From the NCBI RefSeq assembly GCF_988243305.1, contig NZ_OZ547136.1: a stretch of DNA of 64,000 nucleotides. The stretch is one strand, 5' to 3'. Shown here piece after piece: positions 34,561 through 63,179 of this stretch. The notes beneath the pieces were generated by a model. The model was not told the origin of the DNA. It searched no databases and saw only the letters and a list, made by a program, of their open reading frames with translations. Position 1 is the first letter of the stretch. Each line of letters opens with the position of its first letter. Both the position numbers and the translations under genes were made by a program.

Positions 34561-49189
<14,629 letters not shown>

Positions 49190-49293
49190 ATCAGCATACT
49201 TGTCCTTAGCCTTCTGCAGTGACAGCTGGTAGTACAGCGTGCTTCTGGCCAGCCCTGCAGCCTTTAACAGGTCAGACTGGCAGTGTCCGCATC

Positions 49294-49815
49294 TCAGGCT
49301 CCGGATGACTTTCGTTTTTTCTCCAGCTCCTGGCGCTTTTTTTCCAGGAGATGCTCCTGCATGGCTTTCAGATATGCATTTTCTGCGCGAAGATAACGCA
49401 GCTCATTCTTCATCTCTTCCGGCGTCATGTTTGCCTCGTTTTCATGGGTATCATCAGAACGGGTCATGCTTTTCTCCTTCCTGCGCCTGATAAAGGCCTC
49501 ATCACCAGATTTGCGGTAGCCTTTTATCCAGTTTTTAACCGTGTTGTGGCTGGGAATGTTAAACCGGGCAGCTACCCGGGGTAGAGACTCAGAATGCCCG
49601 AGAGCATAAAGAACCACGCAAAGTTTATCTTCAGGAGAATAGCTACGCCTGTGTCTGCAATCCAGTGCCCGAGGACCGTGAAGAAGAAAAAGATTAATCC
49701 AGTGTGAGAGGCTGGTGTGAGAAAGTTGAAAGAGTTTTGCCGTAGAAATGATGCCAGCATGACCGGCCAGGTAATGATTTACAGCGGCAAGTTTTACTTC
49801 AAATGAATGTTTCAT
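49294..49815 (-). CDS. IS3-family transposase OrfA (HTH), 173 aa
   Basis: MKHSFEVKLAAVNHYL... with C-terminal leucine-zipper-like region; A-rich runs near the 3' end are candidate -1 frameshift sites. Confidence 0.85.
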   Translation of the reverse strand: MKHSFEVKLAAVNHYLAGHAGIISTAKLFQLSHTSLSHWINLFLLHGPRALDCRHRRSYSPEDKLCVVLYALGHSESLPRVAARFNIPSHNTVKNWIKGYRKSGDEAFIRRRKEKSMTRSDDTHENEANMTPEEMKNELRYLRAENAYLKAMQEHLLEKKRQELEKKRKSSGA

Positions 49816-49986
49816 AAACTGCACCTTCAGATGTCAGATTATGTCCAACATTTGGGGTGCAGTTCACAAGCGTCGTATCCGGCATTTCCAATGGGCGTAT
49901 TCTTTTTGAATCCCATCACAAACCCCGCACTCCCCTTTTCCCTTTTCTCCGGCGACGGCTAAATTAGAACTCATCCGACCACATAA

Positions 49987-52032
<2,046 letters not shown>

Positions 52033-52047
52033 ATCGTTATTTGAAGC

Positions 52048-52068
52048 GCCGGATGCGACGCATCCGGC
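52048..52068. repeat. REP-like palindrome (GCCGGATGCGACGCATCCGGC) between convergent fadH and higA; likely also a terminator
   Basis: Read in sequence. Confidence 0.6.
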
Positions 52069-52076
52069 ACGTCGCG

Positions 52077-52493
52077 TTAATCAATAAACAAGGCGGGAGA
52101 AATGCCGAATCGCGTTGCCAGTTTTTTAGCGTGTTCCAGCGTTAATTTCCTCTTCCCGCTCAAAACGCGTGACACCATGGATTTACTGCCAATTTCCGGA
52201 AGATCGGAAAGGGTTAAACCATATTGATCCATAAGGGTACGAATCACGGCTATACCGCCAGGCATGGCTTGAGCCATGGCATTAAATTCAGCAAATTCGG
52301 GCGCTGATTCTTCCCACGCGGTTATTTTGGCACACACCAGATCCAGCAAGGGATTTTCAGGATCGTTGAGCAGCAGATGATCTACCAGTTCCAGCGCCTG
52401 GGTGTATTGTTCCTCGTTCTGAATACCCGCCAGAAAAGGTGCCACAGCAGTTAGCTTTTCTCCTGCTTGCAAGATGTCGGCAATCGCAATCAT
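52077..52493 (-). CDS. higA: HigA antitoxin, XRE-family HTH (138 aa)
   Basis: MIAIADILQAGEKLTAVAPFLAGIQNEEQYT...; C-terminal HTH; the ORF track reads it as part of a 177-aa ORF (see pseudogene). Confidence 0.85.
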   Translation of the reverse strand: MIAIADILQAGEKLTAVAPFLAGIQNEEQYTQALELVDHLLLNDPENPLLDLVCAKITAWEESAPEFAEFNAMAQAMPGGIAVIRTLMDQYGLTLSDLPEIGSKSMVSRVLSGKRKLTLEHAKKLATRFGISPALFID

Positions 52494-52610
52494 TTTTTCC
52501 CCTTTGAAATATCCCTTAGCAATCGTGTTCCCCAGAGCCACCAACTCCGTTTTATGTTGCGGGTATTTTTCCGCAGCATCTTTCAATGCTTTTTGAGTTA
52601 TCAGGTGCAT
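52494..52610 (-). pseudogene. higB: Remnant of higB toxin gene: first ~35 codons only, fused in frame to higA
   Basis: ATG at 52610 gives MHLITQKALKDAAEKYPQHKTELVALGNTIAKGYFK, matching the HigB N-terminus from memory, then runs into the higA start; the rest of the ~104-aa toxin is missing. Confidence 0.65.
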
Positions 52611-52753
52611 TCTTCATCACGTCCGTTGACAGATTGGCAACGAATGAATTTATCTGTGTGACGGAAGAATAAACGTAGAAAAATGCTAAACAAGAGAATG
52701 TAGAGGATGGTGACAGGGATTTTTTGTTTTATGGAAGCGCGATTCCAGAACTG

Positions 52754-52845
52754 GGCAGACATTGCCGGATGCGACGCTTGCCGCGTCTTATCCGACCTGG
52801 GGGTAATGTGCTGAACGTAGGCCAGATAAGGCGTTTACGCCTTAT
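52754..52845. repeat. REP/BIME elements between the higB remnant and rlmG
   Basis: GCCGGATGCGACGCTTGCCGCGTCTTATCCG and GGCCAGATAAGGCGTTTACGCCTTATCTGGC. Confidence 0.8.
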
Positions 52846-52865
52846 CTGGCAGGTAGCTGCCAATC

Positions 52866-54002
52866 TTACCGACGACGCCCCAGCTTCACCGCTTTCAGCA
52901 CCACAAATTTATTATTCGTGGCGATGGTGGTGCAGTTGCCGAAAATCTTCTTCAGTTTATGGAAGTAATCCAGGTGACGGTTGGCAACGATATACAGCTC
53001 GCCGTTGATTTTCAGACAGCGGCGGGCGTGGTGGAACATCTCCCAGGCGACGTTATCGGTCAGCGCATGTTGCTGATGAAACGGCGGGTTGCAGAGCACA
53101 GCATTAAAGCGGAAAGGCTCCACGCCGGAGAGCGCGTTGTTGATCATAAACTCGCAGCGATCCAACGCCTCTGGCATGTTGGTTTCAACGTTCAAACGGC
53201 TGGAAGCAACCGCCATCGGCGATTCATCGACAAACACCACTTTCGCCTGCGGGTTTTTATCAAGCAGCGTCAGACCAATAACGCCATTACCACAACCGAG
53301 ATCGACAATCTCACCTTCGAGATTCTCTGGCAGATGCTGCATAAAGAAGCGCGCGCCAATATCCAGCCCGGTGCGGGAGAAGACATTCGCATGGTTGTGG
53401 ATAGTCCAGTCAGTACCTTCCAGTTTCCAGCTAACGGTCTGCGGCGCATCGGCCAGCGGCGGCTCGTTGAAAGTACAGTTAATTAAGCGTGCCTTCTTCC
53501 ATGCCAGCGTGGTGGTGGTAGGGCCGAGCACTTTTTCGAACAGTTCCAGCGTGGAAGTGTGGATGTCACGGGCTTTGGCACCGGCAATAATACGTGTATC
53601 CGGCGTGACCACTTTGCGCAGCGCACGCAGTTGTTGTTCCAGCAACGCCAGTGTTTTCGGTACTTTGATCAGTACCACGCCCGGCTGTTGCGGGTAGTCG
53701 GCGGTGCTGTCGAGAAACTTCACGCTCGACTCATCAATCCCGTTGAGGCGTAAATTCTCGCGCGTCGCCAGTTCGCTGATGTATGAGTCGCCAATGCTGT
53801 ATGGCTTATGTTCCGCCAGCACACAACTTAACGCACCAAAGGCATCATTCAGGATCAACACCGGGCCGCGGATTTCTGTGTCGTCCAACTGTTGCAGCAA
53901 ATATTCATCCGCCGCTTCCCACGCCTGTAGTGGGTTAACGTCATCCGTCGCCGGAAAACGTTGTAGTGTCAGTGAACGGAAACCGTTGTCTAAGTGGCTC
54001 AT
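52866..54002 (-). CDS. rlmG: 23S rRNA (guanine1835-N2)-methyltransferase (378 aa)
   Basis: Tandem class I methyltransferase domains. Confidence 0.9.
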
Positions 54003-54086
54003 CGGCCCTCCTGAATGATAAAATTTCGACGTTGCCCCTGAAAAGGGTGCGTGAGTATACCCTTTTTCTCTTTTTCGTGGGCGGTT

Positions 54087-54590
54087 ATGAGCAATCTTAC
54101 TTATCTTCAGGGTTATCCCGACCAGCTACTTTCCCAGGTGCGAACGCTGATTAACGAACAGCGTCTGGGCGATGTGCTGGCAAAACGCTATCCGGGAACA
54201 CACGACTACGCCACCGATAAAGCCCTCTGGCAATATACTCAGGATCTTAAAAATCAGTTTCTGCGCAATGCCCCGCCGATCACTAAAGTGATGTATGACA
54301 ACAAGATCCATGTGCTGAAAAACGCGCTCGGGTTACATACCGCTGTTTCGCGTGTGCAGGGCGGCAAGCTGAAAGCAAAGGCGGAGATCCGCGTCGCTAC
54401 CGTGTTTCGCAACGCGCCGGAACCGTTTTTGCGCATGATCGTGGTGCACGAGTTGGCGCACCTGAAGGAGAAAGAGCATAACAAAGCGTTCTATCAATTG
54501 TGCTGCCATATGGAGCCGCAGTACCACCAGCTTGAGTTCGACACCCGGCTGTGGCTAACGCAGTTGTCGCTTGGGCAGGACAAAATCTGA
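54087..54590 (+). CDS. ygjP: DUF45-type metal-dependent hydrolase (167 aa)
   Basis: HExxH-like motif ([12 protein letters not shown]); start moved from the ORF-track start (54051) to ATG 54087. Confidence 0.8.
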
Positions 54591-54666
54591 AAATGATGTC
54601 AGGCGTTATCTTTTCTTCCTATAGCGCCTAAAATCGACCTCCCCCCTTTCGTTAAGGATAACGACC

Positions 54667-55350
54667 ATGCAGCCCCGCCTTCTTCTCCGTATTTGTTTTT
54701 CTCGCCGGACTCTTAAGATTGGCTGTTTATTGTTGCTTATAGCAGGAGCGACCATTTTTATTGCCGATCGCGTTATGGTCAACACCAGCAAGCAGCTGAC
54801 CTGGAGCGATGTCAACGCAGTTCCGGCGCGTAACGTGGGTTTATTGCTGGGGGCGAGGCCGGGTAATCGCTACTTTACCCGACGTATTGATACCGCAGCA
54901 GCGTTGTACCACGCCGGAAAAGTGAAATGGCTACTGGTAAGTGGCGATAACGGACGTAAAAATTACGATGAAGCCTCAGGTATGCAGCAGGCTTTGATCG
55001 CTAAAGGCGTACCGGCGAAAGTGATCTTCTGCGACTATGCCGGATTCTCAACGCTTGATTCGGTGGTGCGTGCCAAAAAGGTGTTTGGGGAAAACCATAT
55101 CACCATTATTTCGCAAGAATTTCATAACCAACGCGCCATCTGGCTGGCAAAACAGTACGGCATCGACGCTATCGGCTTTAACGCGCCAGACCTCAATATG
55201 AAGCACGGTTTTTATACTCAGTTACGGGAGAAACTCGCCAGAGTCAGCGCGGTGATTGACGCAAAAATCCTCCATCGCCAGCCGAAATATCTCGGGCCAT
55301 CGGTCATGATTGGGCCGTTTAGTGAGCATGGCTGTCCGGCGCAGAAATAA
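54667..55350 (+). CDS. ygjQ: DUF218-family membrane-anchored protein (227 aa)
   Basis: N-terminal TM segment. Confidence 0.8.
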
Positions 55351-55428
55351 TGCGTATCTGCGCACGTCGAAGATGAAAAAGGCGTGCTACATTGACGACA
55401 GAATCCCTTTATGGAGTATCCACGCGTT

Positions 55429-56415
55429 ATGATACGTTTCGCTGTGATTGGTACGAACTGGATCACTCGCCAGTTCGTCGAGGCCGCCCATGAGAGCGGT
55501 AAATACAAGTTAACCGCCGTATATTCCCGCAGCCTTGAACAGGCCCAGCACTTTGCCAATGATTTTTCTGTCGAGCATCTGTTTACGTCGCTGGAAGCGA
55601 TGGCGGAAAGCGATGCCATTGACGCGGTGTATATTGCCAGCCCGAATGCCCTGCACTTTTCCCAGACACAACTTTTCCTTAGCCACAAAATTCATGTGAT
55701 TTGCGAGAAGCCGCTGGCATCGAATCTGGCGGAAGTGGATGCCGCCATTGCCTGTGCGCGGGAAAATCAGGTGGTGCTGTTTGAGGCATTTAAAACGGCC
55801 TACCTGCCGAACTTTCATCTGTTGCGCCAGGCGCTGCCGAAAGTCGGCAAACTGCGTAAAGTCTTTTTCAACTATTGCCAGTATTCCTCGCGGTATCAAC
55901 GTTACCTGGATGGTGAGAATCCCAACACCTTTAATCCGGCATTCTCTAACGGTTCAATTATGGATATCGGCTTTTACTGCCTGGCGTCGGCGGTGGCATT
56001 ATTCGGTGAACCGAAAAGCGTGCAGGCAACCGCCAGTTTGCTGGCAAGCGGCGTGGATGCCCACGGCGTGGTGGTGATGGATTACGGTGATTTCAGCGTT
56101 ACGTTGCAGCACTCAAAAGTGAGCGATTCTGTCCTGGCAAGCGAGATTCAGGGCGAAGCAGGATCGCTGGTGATTGAAAAACTGTCTGAATGCCAGAAAG
56201 TGTGTTTTGTGCCGCGTGGCAGCCAGATGCAGGATCTCACCCAACCGCAGCATATTAATACCATGCTCTACGAAGCAGAGCTGTTCGCTACCCTGGTGGA
56301 TGAGCATCTGGTGGATCATCCTGGGCTGGCGGTCAGTCGCATCACCGCCAAACTGCTGACCGAGATCCGCCGCCAGACTGGGGTGATTTTTCCGGCAGAT
56401 AGCGTAAAACTATAA
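55429..56415 (+). CDS. ygjR: Gfo/Idh/MocA-family NAD(P)-dependent oxidoreductase (328 aa)
   Basis: Rossmann N-terminus (MIRFAVIGTNWI); alternative ATG at 55411 would add 6 codons. Confidence 0.8.
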   Translation: MIRFAVIGTNWITRQFVEAAHESGKYKLTAVYSRSLEQAQHFANDFSVEHLFTSLEAMAESDAIDAVYIASPNALHFSQTQLFLSHKIHVICEKPLASNLAEVDAAIACARENQVVLFEAFKTAYLPNFHLLRQALPKVGKLRKVFFNYCQYSSRYQRYLDGENPNTFNPAFSNGSIMDIGFYCLASAVALFGEPKSVQATASLLASGVDAHGVVVMDYGDFSVTLQHSKVSDSVLASEIQGEAGSLVIEKLSECQKVCFVPRGSQMQDLTQPQHINTMLYEAELFATLVDEHLVDHPGLAVSRITAKLLTEIRRQTGVIFPADSVKL

Positions 56416-56439
56416 TTGCCAAAGTAAAACAGTGTAAAA

Positions 56440-56690
56440 GGTATGTAACAGACCATTGACTGACTGAATGGTCTGTCATACTTTGTTACCTGCAAAGGGG
56501 AGTAACTTCATTGCCGGTCGATCGTCATTACGATGTGTGAAAAACCACATCCGGTCACCGGGCAACCCGAAAGGAATACGCAGACGTATTCCTTTTTTGT
56601 TGTAAGTGAGACCTTGCCGGAAGGCGAGGTCTATGCATAAAAAGCAGCGGCTGACGTCTTCCGACGTTGGCCGTTTTTTTTATGTGTAAG
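56440..56690 (+). ncRNA. alx 5' leader: yybP-ykoY (Mn2+) riboswitch-type pH-responsive element
   Basis: Long structured leader upstream of alx containing AAAGGGGAGTA; alx is a known yybP-ykoY-associated gene in E. coli; boundaries approximate. Confidence 0.6.
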
Positions 56691-56698
56691 GAACTTCT

Positions 56699-57664
56699 AT
56701 GAATACTGTCGGCACGCCGTTGCTATGGGGCGGATTCGCTGTTGTTGTCGCCATTATGCTGGCTATCGACCTGTTGTTGCAGGGGCGTCGTGGGGCACAT
56801 GCCATGACCATGAAACAGGCTGCGGCCTGGTCGCTGGTCTGGGTGACGCTGTCGTTACTGTTTAACGCCGCTTTCTGGTGGTATCTGGTGCAAACCGAAG
56901 GACGCGCCGTTGCCGATCCACAGGCACTGGCCTTTCTCACGGGTTATCTGATTGAGAAATCGCTGGCGGTCGATAACGTCTTTGTCTGGCTGATGTTGTT
57001 CAGCTATTTCTCTGTTCCGGCGGCGTTACAACGGCGCGTGCTGGTGTATGGCGTGCTCGGGGCGATTGTTCTGCGTACCATCATGATCTTCACTGGCAGC
57101 TGGCTGATTTCGCAGTTCGACTGGATCCTGTATATCTTCGGTGCCTTCCTGCTGTTTACCGGCGTGAAGATGGCGCTGGCCCATGAAGATGAATCAGGCA
57201 TTGGCGACAAGCCGCTGGTGCGCTGGCTGCGCGGTCATTTGCGCATGACCGACACCATCGACAACGAGCATTTCTTTGTGCGTAAGAATGGCTTGCTGTA
57301 TGCCACGCCGCTGATGCTGGTGCTGATTCTGGTGGAATTGAGCGACGTGATTTTCGCCGTGGATAGCATTCCGGCTATCTTCGCCGTGACCACTGACCCG
57401 TTCATTGTGCTGACCTCAAACCTGTTTGCGATCCTCGGCCTGCGTGCGATGTATTTCCTGCTGGCGGGCGTAGCAGAACGTTTCTCGATGCTCAAATATG
57501 GCCTGGCGGTGATTCTGGTGTTTATCGGTATCAAGATGCTGATTGTCGACTTCTACCATATTCCAATCGCCGTCTCGCTGGGCGTGGTGTTTGGCATTCT
57601 GGTGATGACGTTTATTATCAACGCCTGGGTGAATTATCAGCATGATAAGCAGCGGGGAGAATGA
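56699..57664 (+). CDS. alx: TerC-family membrane protein, putative Mn/redox-associated exporter (321 aa)
   Basis: Polytopic TerC-like protein. Confidence 0.9.
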
Positions 57665-57757
57665 TTCGCTGTATATTAAGCCATTACTAGAGATAACTCA
57701 TTCCAGACAAAGGTGAGCTATTAATTATGTAATCGGCTTATAGCTCTTTACAAAAAG

Positions 57758-57985
57758 ACCGCACGGGTGTTGGTGGCGTCAAAATCGCCGAAGCGTTCCC
57801 TGGAGGCCGGGGCGACGCGCATGGATGCGCGGCGAGGGCGCATCTTACAGGGACGTTCCCTTGCGCCCGACCCGGTAGCCGCAAGGGATAAGCTGAGGGA
57901 ACCGCGCAGCGGCGATTTTGTTCGCCAGAGCCTGGGGGTGCAGGGGGCGGCGGCGATTGGCCGCCCCCTGCGCGCTCCCTGCGGT
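57758..57985. other. GC-rich highly structured intergenic element of unknown nature
   Basis: Perfect 12-bp hairpin GCAGGGGGCGGC/GCCGCCCCCTGC (57940-57971); long-range inverted repeat CAAAATCGCCG (57780-57790) / CGGCGATTTTG (57910-57920); several smaller GC stems; both overlapping ORFs have non-protein-like composition. Confidence 0.5.
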
Positions 57986-58279
57986 AGTGACTTTATATGG
58001 CATAGCACATTAAAGGAGCGCAACCGTTCTCATATACCAAATAGTTTTGCCCATATGTTATCTAATCAGCCTTAGTAGCCAGTCCTTCCCTCTGTTTATG
58101 TCAAATAAATGTAACCATTAAGTTGCAAAATATGACCTCTCTTTAAAATCCAGCATTTTTCGCTTCCCGAAGCTGTAACTTTCCTTATACTCGACCTTGC
58201 AAACACTTTGTTACATCCTGAAAGATGCGTCGACAGAACGCACCAGGGATGTGCGACAACACAATGAAAGGATCGAAAA

Positions 58280-59524
58280 ATGACTACGCAACGTTCACCG
58301 GGGCTATTCCGGCGTCTGGCTCATGGCAGCCTGGTAAAACAAATCCTGGTCGGCCTTGTTCTGGGGATTCTTCTGGCATGGATCTCAAAACCCGCGGCGG
58401 AAGCTGTTGGTCTGTTAGGTACTTTGTTCGTCGGCGCACTGAAAGCCGTTGCCCCCATCCTGGTGTTGATGCTGGTAATGGCGTCTATTGCTAACCACCA
58501 GCACGGGCAGAAAACCAATATCCGTCCTATTTTGTTCCTCTATCTACTGGGCACCTTCTCTGCTGCTCTGGCCGCAGTAGTCTTCAGCTTTGCCTTCCCT
58601 TCTACCCTGCACTTATCCAGTAGCGCGGGTGATATTTCGCCGCCGTCAGGCATTGTAGAAGTGATGCGCGGGCTGGTAATGAGCATGGTTTCCAACCCCA
58701 TCGACGCGCTGCTGAAAGGTAACTACATCGGGATCCTGGTGTGGGCAATTGGCCTCGGTTTCGCACTGCGTCACGGTAACGAGACCACCAAAAACCTGGT
58801 CAACGATATGTCGAATGCCGTCACCTTTATGGTGAAACTGGTCATTCGCTTCGCACCGATCGGTATTTTTGGTCTGGTTTCTTCTACCCTGGCAACCACC
58901 GGTTTCTCCACACTGTGGGGCTACGCGCAACTGCTGGTCGTGCTGGTTGGCTGTATGCTGCTGGTGGCGCTGGTGGTTAACCCCTTGCTGGTGTGGTGGA
59001 AAATTCGTCGTAACCCGTTCCCGCTGGTGCTGCTGTGCCTGCGCGAAAGCGGCGTGTACGCCTTCTTCACCCGCAGCTCTGCGGCGAACATTCCGGTGAA
59101 TATGGCGCTGTGTGAAAAGCTGAATCTGGATCGCGATACCTATTCCGTTTCTATTCCGCTGGGTGCCACCATCAATATGGCGGGCGCAGCAATCACCATT
59201 ACCGTGTTGACGCTGGCTGCGGTTAATACGCTGGGTATTCCGGTCGATCTGCCCACAGCGCTGCTGTTGAGCGTAGTGGCTTCTCTGTGTGCCTGTGGCG
59301 CATCCGGCGTGGCGGGGGGTTCTCTGCTGCTGATCCCACTGGCCTGTAATATGTTCGGTATTTCGAACGATATCGCCATGCAGGTGGTTGCCGTCGGCTT
59401 TATCATCGGCGTATTGCAGGACTCTTGCGAAACCGCGCTGAACTCTTCAACTGACGTGCTATTCACTGCGGCAGCTTGCCAGGCAGAAGACGATCGTCTG
59501 GCAAATAGCGCCCTGCGTAATTAA
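58280..59524 (+). CDS. sstT: Na+-coupled serine/threonine transporter (414 aa)
   Basis: DAACS-family polytopic membrane protein; ATG with AAAGGA RBS. Confidence 0.95.
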
Positions 59525-59528
59525 TTGT

Positions 59529-60080
59529 TTAACCCCTTTCGTCTACGGCGGAAGGGGTTTTCTCTACTTTAAACGGATCAATTCCCCTTTTCTGCATCCG
59601 CCAGAAACGAATGATATTCAGACCATTCATCAGCAGAAAACTACCCTCAATCATCGTGCCGCCTATCGACCCCGCCCAGAAGTTGTGAATCACCCAGCAA
59701 CACGTTGAAAACCACATTACGCAGCGCATGGTCAGCCCTTTACAGCGGAATAGCGCCCAGGTACTGACAATCGTGCCGATAACCGGCAATAGTTCGACAG
59801 GATGATGGAACTTCGCGAGGCCAATTCCGCCAGTCAGCACAATAAAAATCGCCATTACCCATAAGCTGCGCGTGCGTAAGGTAATCAATGTACGAATGGC
59901 ATTAAGGATGGCACTGGCACCAGCGGGATAGGTGCCCAGAAGAAAAAAATGTACGCCAATAACGGCGCTATAGACCGAAAGCTGCTTTTTGAAGCGACGT
60001 TCGTCACGATTGAAAAATGTTGTGATACCAATCAGAAAGGCGATGACACCCACGCCCTGGGCCAGCCAATACGCGGTCAT
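59529..60080 (-). CDS. ygjV: Inner membrane protein (183 aa)
   Basis: Polytopic hydrophobic protein. Confidence 0.85.
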   Translation of the reverse strand: MTAYWLAQGVGVIAFLIGITTFFNRDERRFKKQLSVYSAVIGVHFFLLGTYPAGASAILNAIRTLITLRTRSLWVMAIFIVLTGGIGLAKFHHPVELLPVIGTIVSTWALFRCKGLTMRCVMWFSTCCWVIHNFWAGSIGGTMIEGSFLLMNGLNIIRFWRMQKRGIDPFKVEKTPSAVDERG

Positions 60081-60162
60081 GATAAATCCTTAGCAGGTAT
60101 GGAAAAGCAAACGGCGCTTCACATTATGAAACGCCGTTTTTTATTAACAACTCATTTCGACT

Positions 60163-61650
60163 TTATAGCGTTACGCCGCTTTTGAAGATCGCCAGTTCGC
60201 GGAAGTCGTTACGCTCGTTGCAGGTTTGTTTACCATTGGCAAACTCAACGATGGTGTCGATAAATTCTTCCAGCAACTGCGGCATCGCTTTACCGTGGAT
60301 CAGCTGACCCGCGTCAAAGTCGATCCAGTGTTTTTTCTTCGCCGCCAGTTCACTGTTGGTGGCGATTTTCACCGTCGGTACAAAGCCGCCGTATGGCGTG
60401 CCGCGACCAGTACTGAACAGCACCATATGGCAGCCCGCACCCGCCAGGGCGCTGGTCGCTACGGCATCGTTACCTGGCGCACTTAACAAGTTCAGCCCCG
60501 GCGTTTTCAGACGCTCGCCGTAACGCAGCACGTCAACCACGACACTGGAACCGGCTTTCTGGGTACAGCCAAGTGATTTGTCTTCCAGCGTGGTGATACC
60601 GCCCGCTTTGTTCCCCGGCGATGGGTTTTCATAGATCGGCTGGTCATGGGCAATAAAGTACTGCTTGAAGTCATTGACCATGGTGACCAGTTTTTCAAAC
60701 GTTGCTTCGTCGCGGCAATGGTCCATCAGCAACTGCTCTGCGCCAAACATCTCCGGCACTTCGGTCAGTACGGTAGTACCGCCGTTAGCAATCACGTAGT
60801 CAGAGAAACGCCCCAGCATCGGGTTAGCAGTAATACCAGAAAGACCGTCAGAACCACCACACTCCAGACCAAACTTCAGTTCGCTAAGTTTGCCTGGCTC
60901 GCGCTTGTCGTTGCGCATCACGTTATACAGCTGATGCAAATGCTCGATCCCGGCTTCGATCTCATCATCCTGCTGTTGGCAGATCATGAAATGAACGCGT
61001 TCAGGATCGATATCGCCCAGCGTTTCACGGAATGCGGCAACCTGGTTGTTTTCACAGCCCAGACCAATCACCAGCACTGCGCCCGCGTTCGGGTGGCGCA
61101 CCATGTTTTGCAGCATGGTGCGGGTATTGATGTGATCGTCGCCCAGCTGTGAGCAGCCGTAGGTGTGGCTGAAGAGGAACACGCCGTCAGTACCTTCGGC
61201 GTTGTTGGTCTCTTTCAGGAAACGATTTTGGATCTGCCGCGCGATGCCGTTGACACAGCCCACGGTTGGCAGGATCCAGAGCTCATTACGCACCCCGACA
61301 TCGCCGTTAGCGCGACGATAGATCTGCACTTCACGATCTGCCGCTTGCGCAGGCAGATCCTGAAAATCAGGTTGATAGCGATACTGATCCAGATCGCTCA
61401 GATTCGTGCGCGTATTGTGGGCGTGAACGTGTTCCCCCGCCGCAATATCCGCCAATGCATAACCAATCGGCAGGCCATATTTGATGACGTTGGCCCCTTT
61501 TGCGATATCCGTTAACGCAAATTTATGTCCACGAGCAACATCCTGGCGCAGCGTAACAGTCTGGTTATCGACACTGACTTCTGTGCCTTCAGCCAAATCC
61601 GCTAAAGCAACCGCGACGTTATCCAGCGCATGGATCTTGATGTATTGCAT
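60163..61650 (-). CDS. uxaA: Altronate dehydratase (495 aa)
   Basis: MQYIKIHALDNVAVALADL... matches UxaA. Confidence 0.95.
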   Translation of the reverse strand: MQYIKIHALDNVAVALADLAEGTEVSVDNQTVTLRQDVARGHKFALTDIAKGANVIKYGLPIGYALADIAAGEHVHAHNTRTNLSDLDQYRYQPDFQDLPAQAADREVQIYRRANGDVGVRNELWILPTVGCVNGIARQIQNRFLKETNNAEGTDGVFLFSHTYGCSQLGDDHINTRTMLQNMVRHPNAGAVLVIGLGCENNQVAAFRETLGDIDPERVHFMICQQQDDEIEAGIEHLHQLYNVMRNDKREPGKLSELKFGLECGGSDGLSGITANPMLGRFSDYVIANGGTTVLTEVPEMFGAEQLLMDHCRDEATFEKLVTMVNDFKQYFIAHDQPIYENPSPGNKAGGITTLEDKSLGCTQKAGSSVVVDVLRYGERLKTPGLNLLSAPGNDAVATSALAGAGCHMVLFSTGRGTPYGGFVPTVKIATNSELAAKKKHWIDFDAGQLIHGKAMPQLLEEFIDTIVEFANGKQTCNERNDFRELAIFKSGVTL

Positions 61651-61664
61651 ATCAACCCCAGACC

Positions 61665-63179
<1,515 letters not shown>

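Follow-up and report, generated by a model that had tools for sequence, protein, structure and literature searches.

The question raised by this locus is whether a 177-amino-acid (aa) open reading frame (ORF) at the position of higBA (ygjNM) in Escherichia coli, between fadH and rlmG, still belongs to a functional type II toxin–antitoxin (TA) module, is the remnant of one, or is a fused gene that is maintained in its own right. We examined it within the window, by which we mean the whole 64-kb stretch of DNA that was analysed. The ORF is composite. Compared with K-12 MG1655, its residues 1–36 are identical to HigB 1–36 (tblastn, E = 9e-21), residues 37–39 form a GEK linker, and residues 40–177 correspond to HigA 1–138 with zero substitutions (tblastn, E = 1e-91). 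Its PDB matches are to 5IFG_A (residues 1–40) and 5IFG_B (residues 1–138), and the solved structures 5IFG, 5YCL and 6KML give the same identity for the HigB stub and HigA as the comparison with K-12. The sequence-only reading, made before any database search, had matched the start of the ORF to the HigB N-terminus and had read on through GEKM into a full-length HigA; this N-terminus agrees with MG1655 over residues 1–36, and all 138 HigA residues are identical to those of K-12. It had also noted that the junction would encode KGKK-stop over the higA start, and the +1 frame there does end in KGKK-stop, the native C-terminus of HigB overlapping the higA ATG. The ORF exists as claimed, with the single correction that it lies on the minus strand (Table 1).

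We aligned the window with the intact allele of AST217 (L002), the same allele in FDAARGOS_1285 (L001) and a different deletion in Combat2C1 (L003), and refer to this alignment as A1. Exactly 194 bp of higB are absent from the window (A1 columns 287–480), which takes out HigB residues 37–101, two thirds of the toxin gene. In the intact allele, ...GGATATTTCA is followed by the deleted segment, AAAAACCTG...CATCGTACT, and then by AAGGGGAAAAAATG; the window reads ...GGATATTTCAAAGGGGAAAAAATG across the junction, at which the microhomology is only 2 bp (AA, window 52503–52504). Slippage between flanking CTAAGGG direct repeats was considered as the deletion mechanism and rejected, because both AAGGG copies remain in the window and the junction instead falls at the 2-bp AA. 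Since 194 = 3n + 2 and the ATGA overlap puts higA in the −1 frame relative to higB, the stub comes to be in frame with higA. The last 13 nt of higB, which are retained beyond the junction, hold a purine-rich Shine–Dalgarno-like run and the ATGA stop/start overlap for higA, and in the fusion frame are read as G-E-K-M. Earlier estimates of about 190 bp lost and a stub of about 35 aa come close to the 194 bp and 36 aa found by alignment, and the comparison with K-12 higB–higA that had been proposed as a check upheld both the in-frame fusion and the partial loss of higB.

Table 1. Features of the higBA remnant and the genes on either side of it (positions in the window)
Feature	Position	Strand	Basis
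fadH	50014–52032	+	
Fusion ORF HigB(1–36)-GEK-HigA(1–138), 177 aa	52077–52610	−	ORF list, translation, PDB matches
higA, 138 codons and stop	52077–52493	−	K-12 identity, PDB, Pfam
Last 13 nt of higB, GGGGAAAAAATGA	52490–52502	−	Sequence, reading frames
194-bp deletion junction, TTTCA/AA/GGGG	52502–52505	−	A1; diagnostic 50-mer
higB remnant, codons 1–36, identical to K-12	52503–52610	−	tblastn, 36/36; PGAP annotations elsewhere
Single hybrid 29-bp repeat copy, TTGCCAATCTGTCAACGGACGTGATGAAGA	52611–52640	−	A1; promoter scan
rlmG	52866–54002	−	

Most of the toxin domain is removed by the deletion. Intact K-12 HigB matches the Pfam family HigB_toxin (PF09907) over residues 20–92 (E = 4e-22); the fusion ORF has no PF09907 match, and its sole Pfam match is the HTH_3 domain of HigA. 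Pfam provided the control for HigB, as NCBIfam has no usable model of K-12-type HigB and gives only a spurious weak match for the intact protein. The complete RelE-like domain of a HigB toxin (PF09907, RelE/ParE superfamily), including its active-site beta-sheet, is thus absent from the fusion. Single-sequence AlphaFold2 gives a weak hint that the stub consists of two helices (low confidence, mean pLDDT 54). The active sites of HigB lie in an antiparallel beta-sheet (PMC7984235), and both toxicity and its neutralisation have been demonstrated for the intact K-12 higB and higA (PMC2814082). We infer with high confidence that the RNase activity, and with it toxin activity, would be lost here. 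Two things had been named that would speak against this reading, namely a full-length higB elsewhere in the interval and a K-12 N-terminus other than the one proposed. Neither was found: with tblastn, HigB residues 37–104 have no match anywhere in the 64-kb window and residues 1–36 match only at 52610–52503, and the K-12 N-terminus is the one proposed. The claim that the strain lacks a functional HigB holds for this locus and for the window but was too broad for the strain as a whole, in which a HigB-like toxin may be encoded elsewhere in the genome.

The antitoxin gene is complete. HigA is present at full length, with its N-terminal toxin-binding region and its C-terminal XRE/HTH_3 domain (fusion residues 123–174), and is identical at 138 of 138 positions to 5IFG_B and to K-12. 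Its ORF is intact in all 14 alleles that were sampled, among which 11 synonymous and 3 non-synonymous changes segregate. This pattern is compatible with purifying selection, much of which may predate the loss of the toxin. An intact higA beside a disrupted higB, at a site where other strains have the complete module, makes the locus an orphan antitoxin, as had been proposed, and a TA pseudogene.

A second lesion, which the sequence-only reading had overlooked, lies just upstream of the stub. The window is without one copy of a 29-bp tandem promoter/operator repeat directly upstream of the higB ATG (A1 columns 131–159). Intact alleles carry two units, TTGCCAATCTGTCAACGGATGTTATCATA and then TTGCCAATTTGTCAACGGACGTGATGAAGA (positions 761–818 of L002), and the single hybrid copy in the window is what slippage or unequal recombination within their common TGTCAACGGA would be expected to leave. 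Across E. coli strains the unit occurs in one, two or three copies, with three in STEC299. The first unit of K-12 contains a perfect palindrome, TTGCCA-ATC-TGGCAA; the hybrid keeps the −35-like TTGCCA and an imperfect palindrome, TTGCCA-ATC-TGTCAA, but has GATGAA in place of the −10 TATCAT of the intact allele. In a consensus scan, intact AST217 shows a strong sigma-70-like site that matches at 10 of 12 positions (TTGCCA, 16 nt, TATCAT, with a TG extending the −10). Its end lies 32 nt upstream of the higB ATG, and higB has no other such site upstream. The same scan, which is a crude one, finds no promoter-like site on either strand between 52000 and 52900 of the window. In K-12, Christensen-Dalsgaard et al. 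described a single higBA promoter upstream of higB, autoregulated by HigA and Lon-dependent, and no start site upstream of higA (PMC2814082); TATCAT would probably be the −10 that was mapped experimentally there.

The loss of the −10 box together with a repeat copy makes expression of the remnant and of higA doubtful. Given that the −10 is gone, that the scan finds no promoter and that the sole known promoter lies upstream of higB, transcription of stub-higA is probably much reduced in this strain. Some may remain, as the hybrid repeat retains the −35 box, and read-through from rlmG is a possible source of higA mRNA because the scan showed no terminator-like site between rlmG and higB on the minus strand. 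Translation of any transcript from the higB ATG would yield the 177-aa fusion, and native 138-aa HigA could still be synthesised by way of AAGGGGAAAAA, the retained purine-rich run immediately upstream of the higA ATG. The earlier view that the repressor/antitoxin is kept is therefore correct for the coding sequence and uncertain for its expression, since the −10 of the higBA promoter has been lost. With a truncated toxin and without the promoter −10, the locus is not a functional TA module, in which both genes would be intact, adjacent and part of a single autoregulated operon.

A population survey of the deletion allele, which had been suggested as a further check, found the identical junction in 20 of 5,426 complete E. 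coli genomes (0.37%). It used a diagnostic 50-mer, and the junction queries were designed so that the intact allele gives no 28-nt megablast seed. Public records, such as ASO89775.1 in GenBank, already contain the exact 177-aa protein and variously name it HigB, HigA or hypothetical; it occurs on about 1,000 contigs, and in every carrier inspected PGAP annotates a ‘higB pseudogene, missing C-terminus’ together with higA. The collapse of the 29-bp repeat occurs in seven genomes, five of them with the 194-bp deletion and two with an intact higB (UTAK-1 and OkiPb01711). These last two may carry a transcriptionally silent intact higBA, because the one-copy form has no −10 TATCAT. The stub has a G>C change in all five genomes with both lesions but not in the window, and the exact combination in the window is therefore not found in the 5,426-genome collection.

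These counts bear on whether the apparent deletion is real. Collapse of a tandem repeat of 29 bp is a typical assembly error, and nothing more specific points to an assembly or sequencing artefact in the window. Such an explanation is hardly credible, however, when the same 194-bp junction appears in 20 independently finished genomes, the same hybrid repeat in seven, two of which have an intact higB, and the same protein on about 1,000 contigs from several sources. The junction was found in no GTDB species-representative genome.

Alleles at the fadH–rlmG site fall into at least four classes, one intact, one empty and two with independent higB deletions. About 2,820 of the 5,426 genomes have a full-length higB region, a class obtained by subtracting the 20 deletion carriers from the 2,842 genomes in which a 301-bp query was covered to at least 80%. 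In 1,520 genomes (28%), an independent deletion has removed the promoter and the N-terminus of higB and has left higA in place, and a further 1,055 have no match to the 301-bp query, so that about 19% are without higBA DNA at the site. The 194-bp allele is rare and not new, and loss of higB at this locus is common. The same classes also bear on the order of events. It is close to inconceivable that the short allele is ancestral and that the full-length higB of the K-12 type arose from it by insertion: full-length HigB forms a complete Pfam HigB_toxin domain with solved structures, the short form keeps an out-of-frame remnant of the HigB C-terminus (KGKK-stop), and the long form is found in about 2,800 genomes and the short form in 20.

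The sequences that flank the identical junction diverge among carriers, by as much as about 4% in rlmG and about 6–7% in fadH, and the junction is found on two different higA haplotypes. Recurrence of an identical deletion is unlikely because the microhomology is only 2 bp, and we consider it the better reading that the deletion arose once and then either spread by homologous recombination or persisted for a long time. Among complete genomes, the closest relatives over 18 kb are MEW, which was isolated from an ivory gull, and O158:H23 CFIAFB20140388, both 98.3% identical; the remaining top matches listed are about 96.4% identical to window 44000–62000. As the best identities reach only 98.3% and the others about 96.4%, the source of the window is a poorly sampled, divergent E. 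coli lineage.

We regard it as very probable that the window carries a decayed chromosomal higBA (ygjNM) type II TA locus that bears both lesions, is without a toxin and retains an intact higA frame. One event, a 194-bp deletion with 2 bp of microhomology, removed HigB residues 37–101, the beta-sheet core with the RNase active site; loss of this core would destroy the mRNA-interferase toxin, and the same deletion brought the remaining 36 N-terminal codons into the higA frame. In a second event, probably by unequal recombination or slippage between the two 29-bp tandem repeats, one operator/promoter copy was lost, and with it the −10 hexamer of the sole higBA promoter. The intact higA frame could then be read from the higB start as the 177-aa stub–HigA fusion or, alternatively, from its own ATG and Shine–Dalgarno-like run as the native 138-aa HigA, with transcription that is probably only weak or due to read-through.

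It is unlikely, by comparison, that the orphan higA or the stub–HigA fusion is a maintained functional gene, either for anti-addiction or immunity against incoming HigB homologues borne by plasmids or phages or as a transcription factor that acts alone. Every sampled carrier of either deletion type has an intact higA ORF, and the variation consists of the 11 synonymous and 3 non-synonymous changes noted above; orphan higA persists in 1,520 of the 5,426 genomes; the exact fusion is present on about 1,000 contigs; and the identical deletion lies on very different flanking backgrounds, all of which would fit a gene that is kept. The synonymous bias, however, may be inherited from the era of the intact module, and an in-frame fusion is expected by chance in one case out of three. 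The window is also without the promoter −10 box, which looks like continuing decay, and the site has no higBA DNA in about 19% of genomes (1,055 of 5,426). The narrower proposal that the HigB(1–36)–HigA fusion or orphan HigA has been selected, as a stand-alone regulator or as anti-addiction immunity against horizontally arriving HigB, seems to us very improbable, although the two N-terminal helices of HigB, as modelled, could change the stability or the partner binding of the fusion.

Decay of a chromosomal TA locus typically takes the toxin first, and the antitoxin lingers. For chromosomal ccdO157 of E. coli, Mine and colleagues (2009; cited in PMC7167474) reportedly described such decay, with an inactivated toxin and a persisting antitoxin; the general pattern is alike, and the TA family and the locus differ. 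Compared with K-12 higBA (ygjNM, b3083–b3082), the window has the same fadH–rlmG site, the 36 HigB codons, the HigA protein and the ATGA overlap, but is without the 194 bp of higB that encode residues 37–101 and has a single 29-bp promoter/operator repeat instead of two, the −10 TATCAT having been lost with the other. Orphan higA at the fadH–rlmG site of CFT073, NRG857c and similar strains has already been described (PMC7232551), and the Combat2C1-type allele represents the same outcome at the same locus, with the toxin destroyed and higA intact. That allele arose by the independent deletion of the promoter and the higB N-terminus, which leaves the last ~26 codons and no fusion ORF, and is found in 28% of genomes, compared with 0.4% for the allele in the window. 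As a TA pseudogene with an orphan antitoxin, the locus is of a known type, and the finding is an ordinary, already catalogued one, because the allele is public, PGAP annotates it correctly and the phenomenon is well known. We found no published description of the 194-bp allele in the literature, and the operator sequence and the PDB codes of the HigA structures gave no relevant full-text match.

In practical terms, the 177-aa ORF should be annotated as a higB pseudogene plus higA, and the strain should not be counted as a HigB carrier in inventories of TA systems or persistence. The allele classes at the fadH–rlmG site, together with the promoter repeat in one to three copies, provide a convenient natural series for the loss of a TA module.

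A 1,431-bp insertion of IS1397 (IS3 family; 48435–49865) lies between a 513-aa hypothetical ORF and fadH, with two transposase ORFs on the minus strand (48467–49189 and 49294–49824); IS1397 copies at other E. coli sites match it at 99.9% identity, and the nearest relatives lack it here. The fadH segment (49866–52061) is unusually divergent: its identity to MEW, otherwise the closest genome, is 96.2%, compared with 98.1–98.7% for the adjoining segments, and over the 3′ 1.5 kb of fadH the sampled E. coli strains diverge by as much as about 6.7%. Because fadH diverges more than the adjoining segments and its 3′ part varies among strains, recombination or imported alleles are suggested at this gene. 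The 513-aa ORF (46733–48274), between ygjK and fadH, has no NCBIfam match, is annotated as a ‘hypothetical protein’ in MEW (WP_085459859.1) and is not at this position in K-12. In MEW, an IS200/IS605 element with insQ/TnpB and a degraded tnpA interrupts ygjK, and ygjJ is a pseudogene (L014, 1294–2935); the window has an uninterrupted 783-aa ORF (44090–46441) at the position that corresponds to ygjK. REP/BIME-type palindromic units (GCCGGATGCGACGC...) lie to either side of the higBA remnant (52040–52075 and 52760–52860), and the spacer between higA and fadH ranges from 45 to 92 nt among strains.
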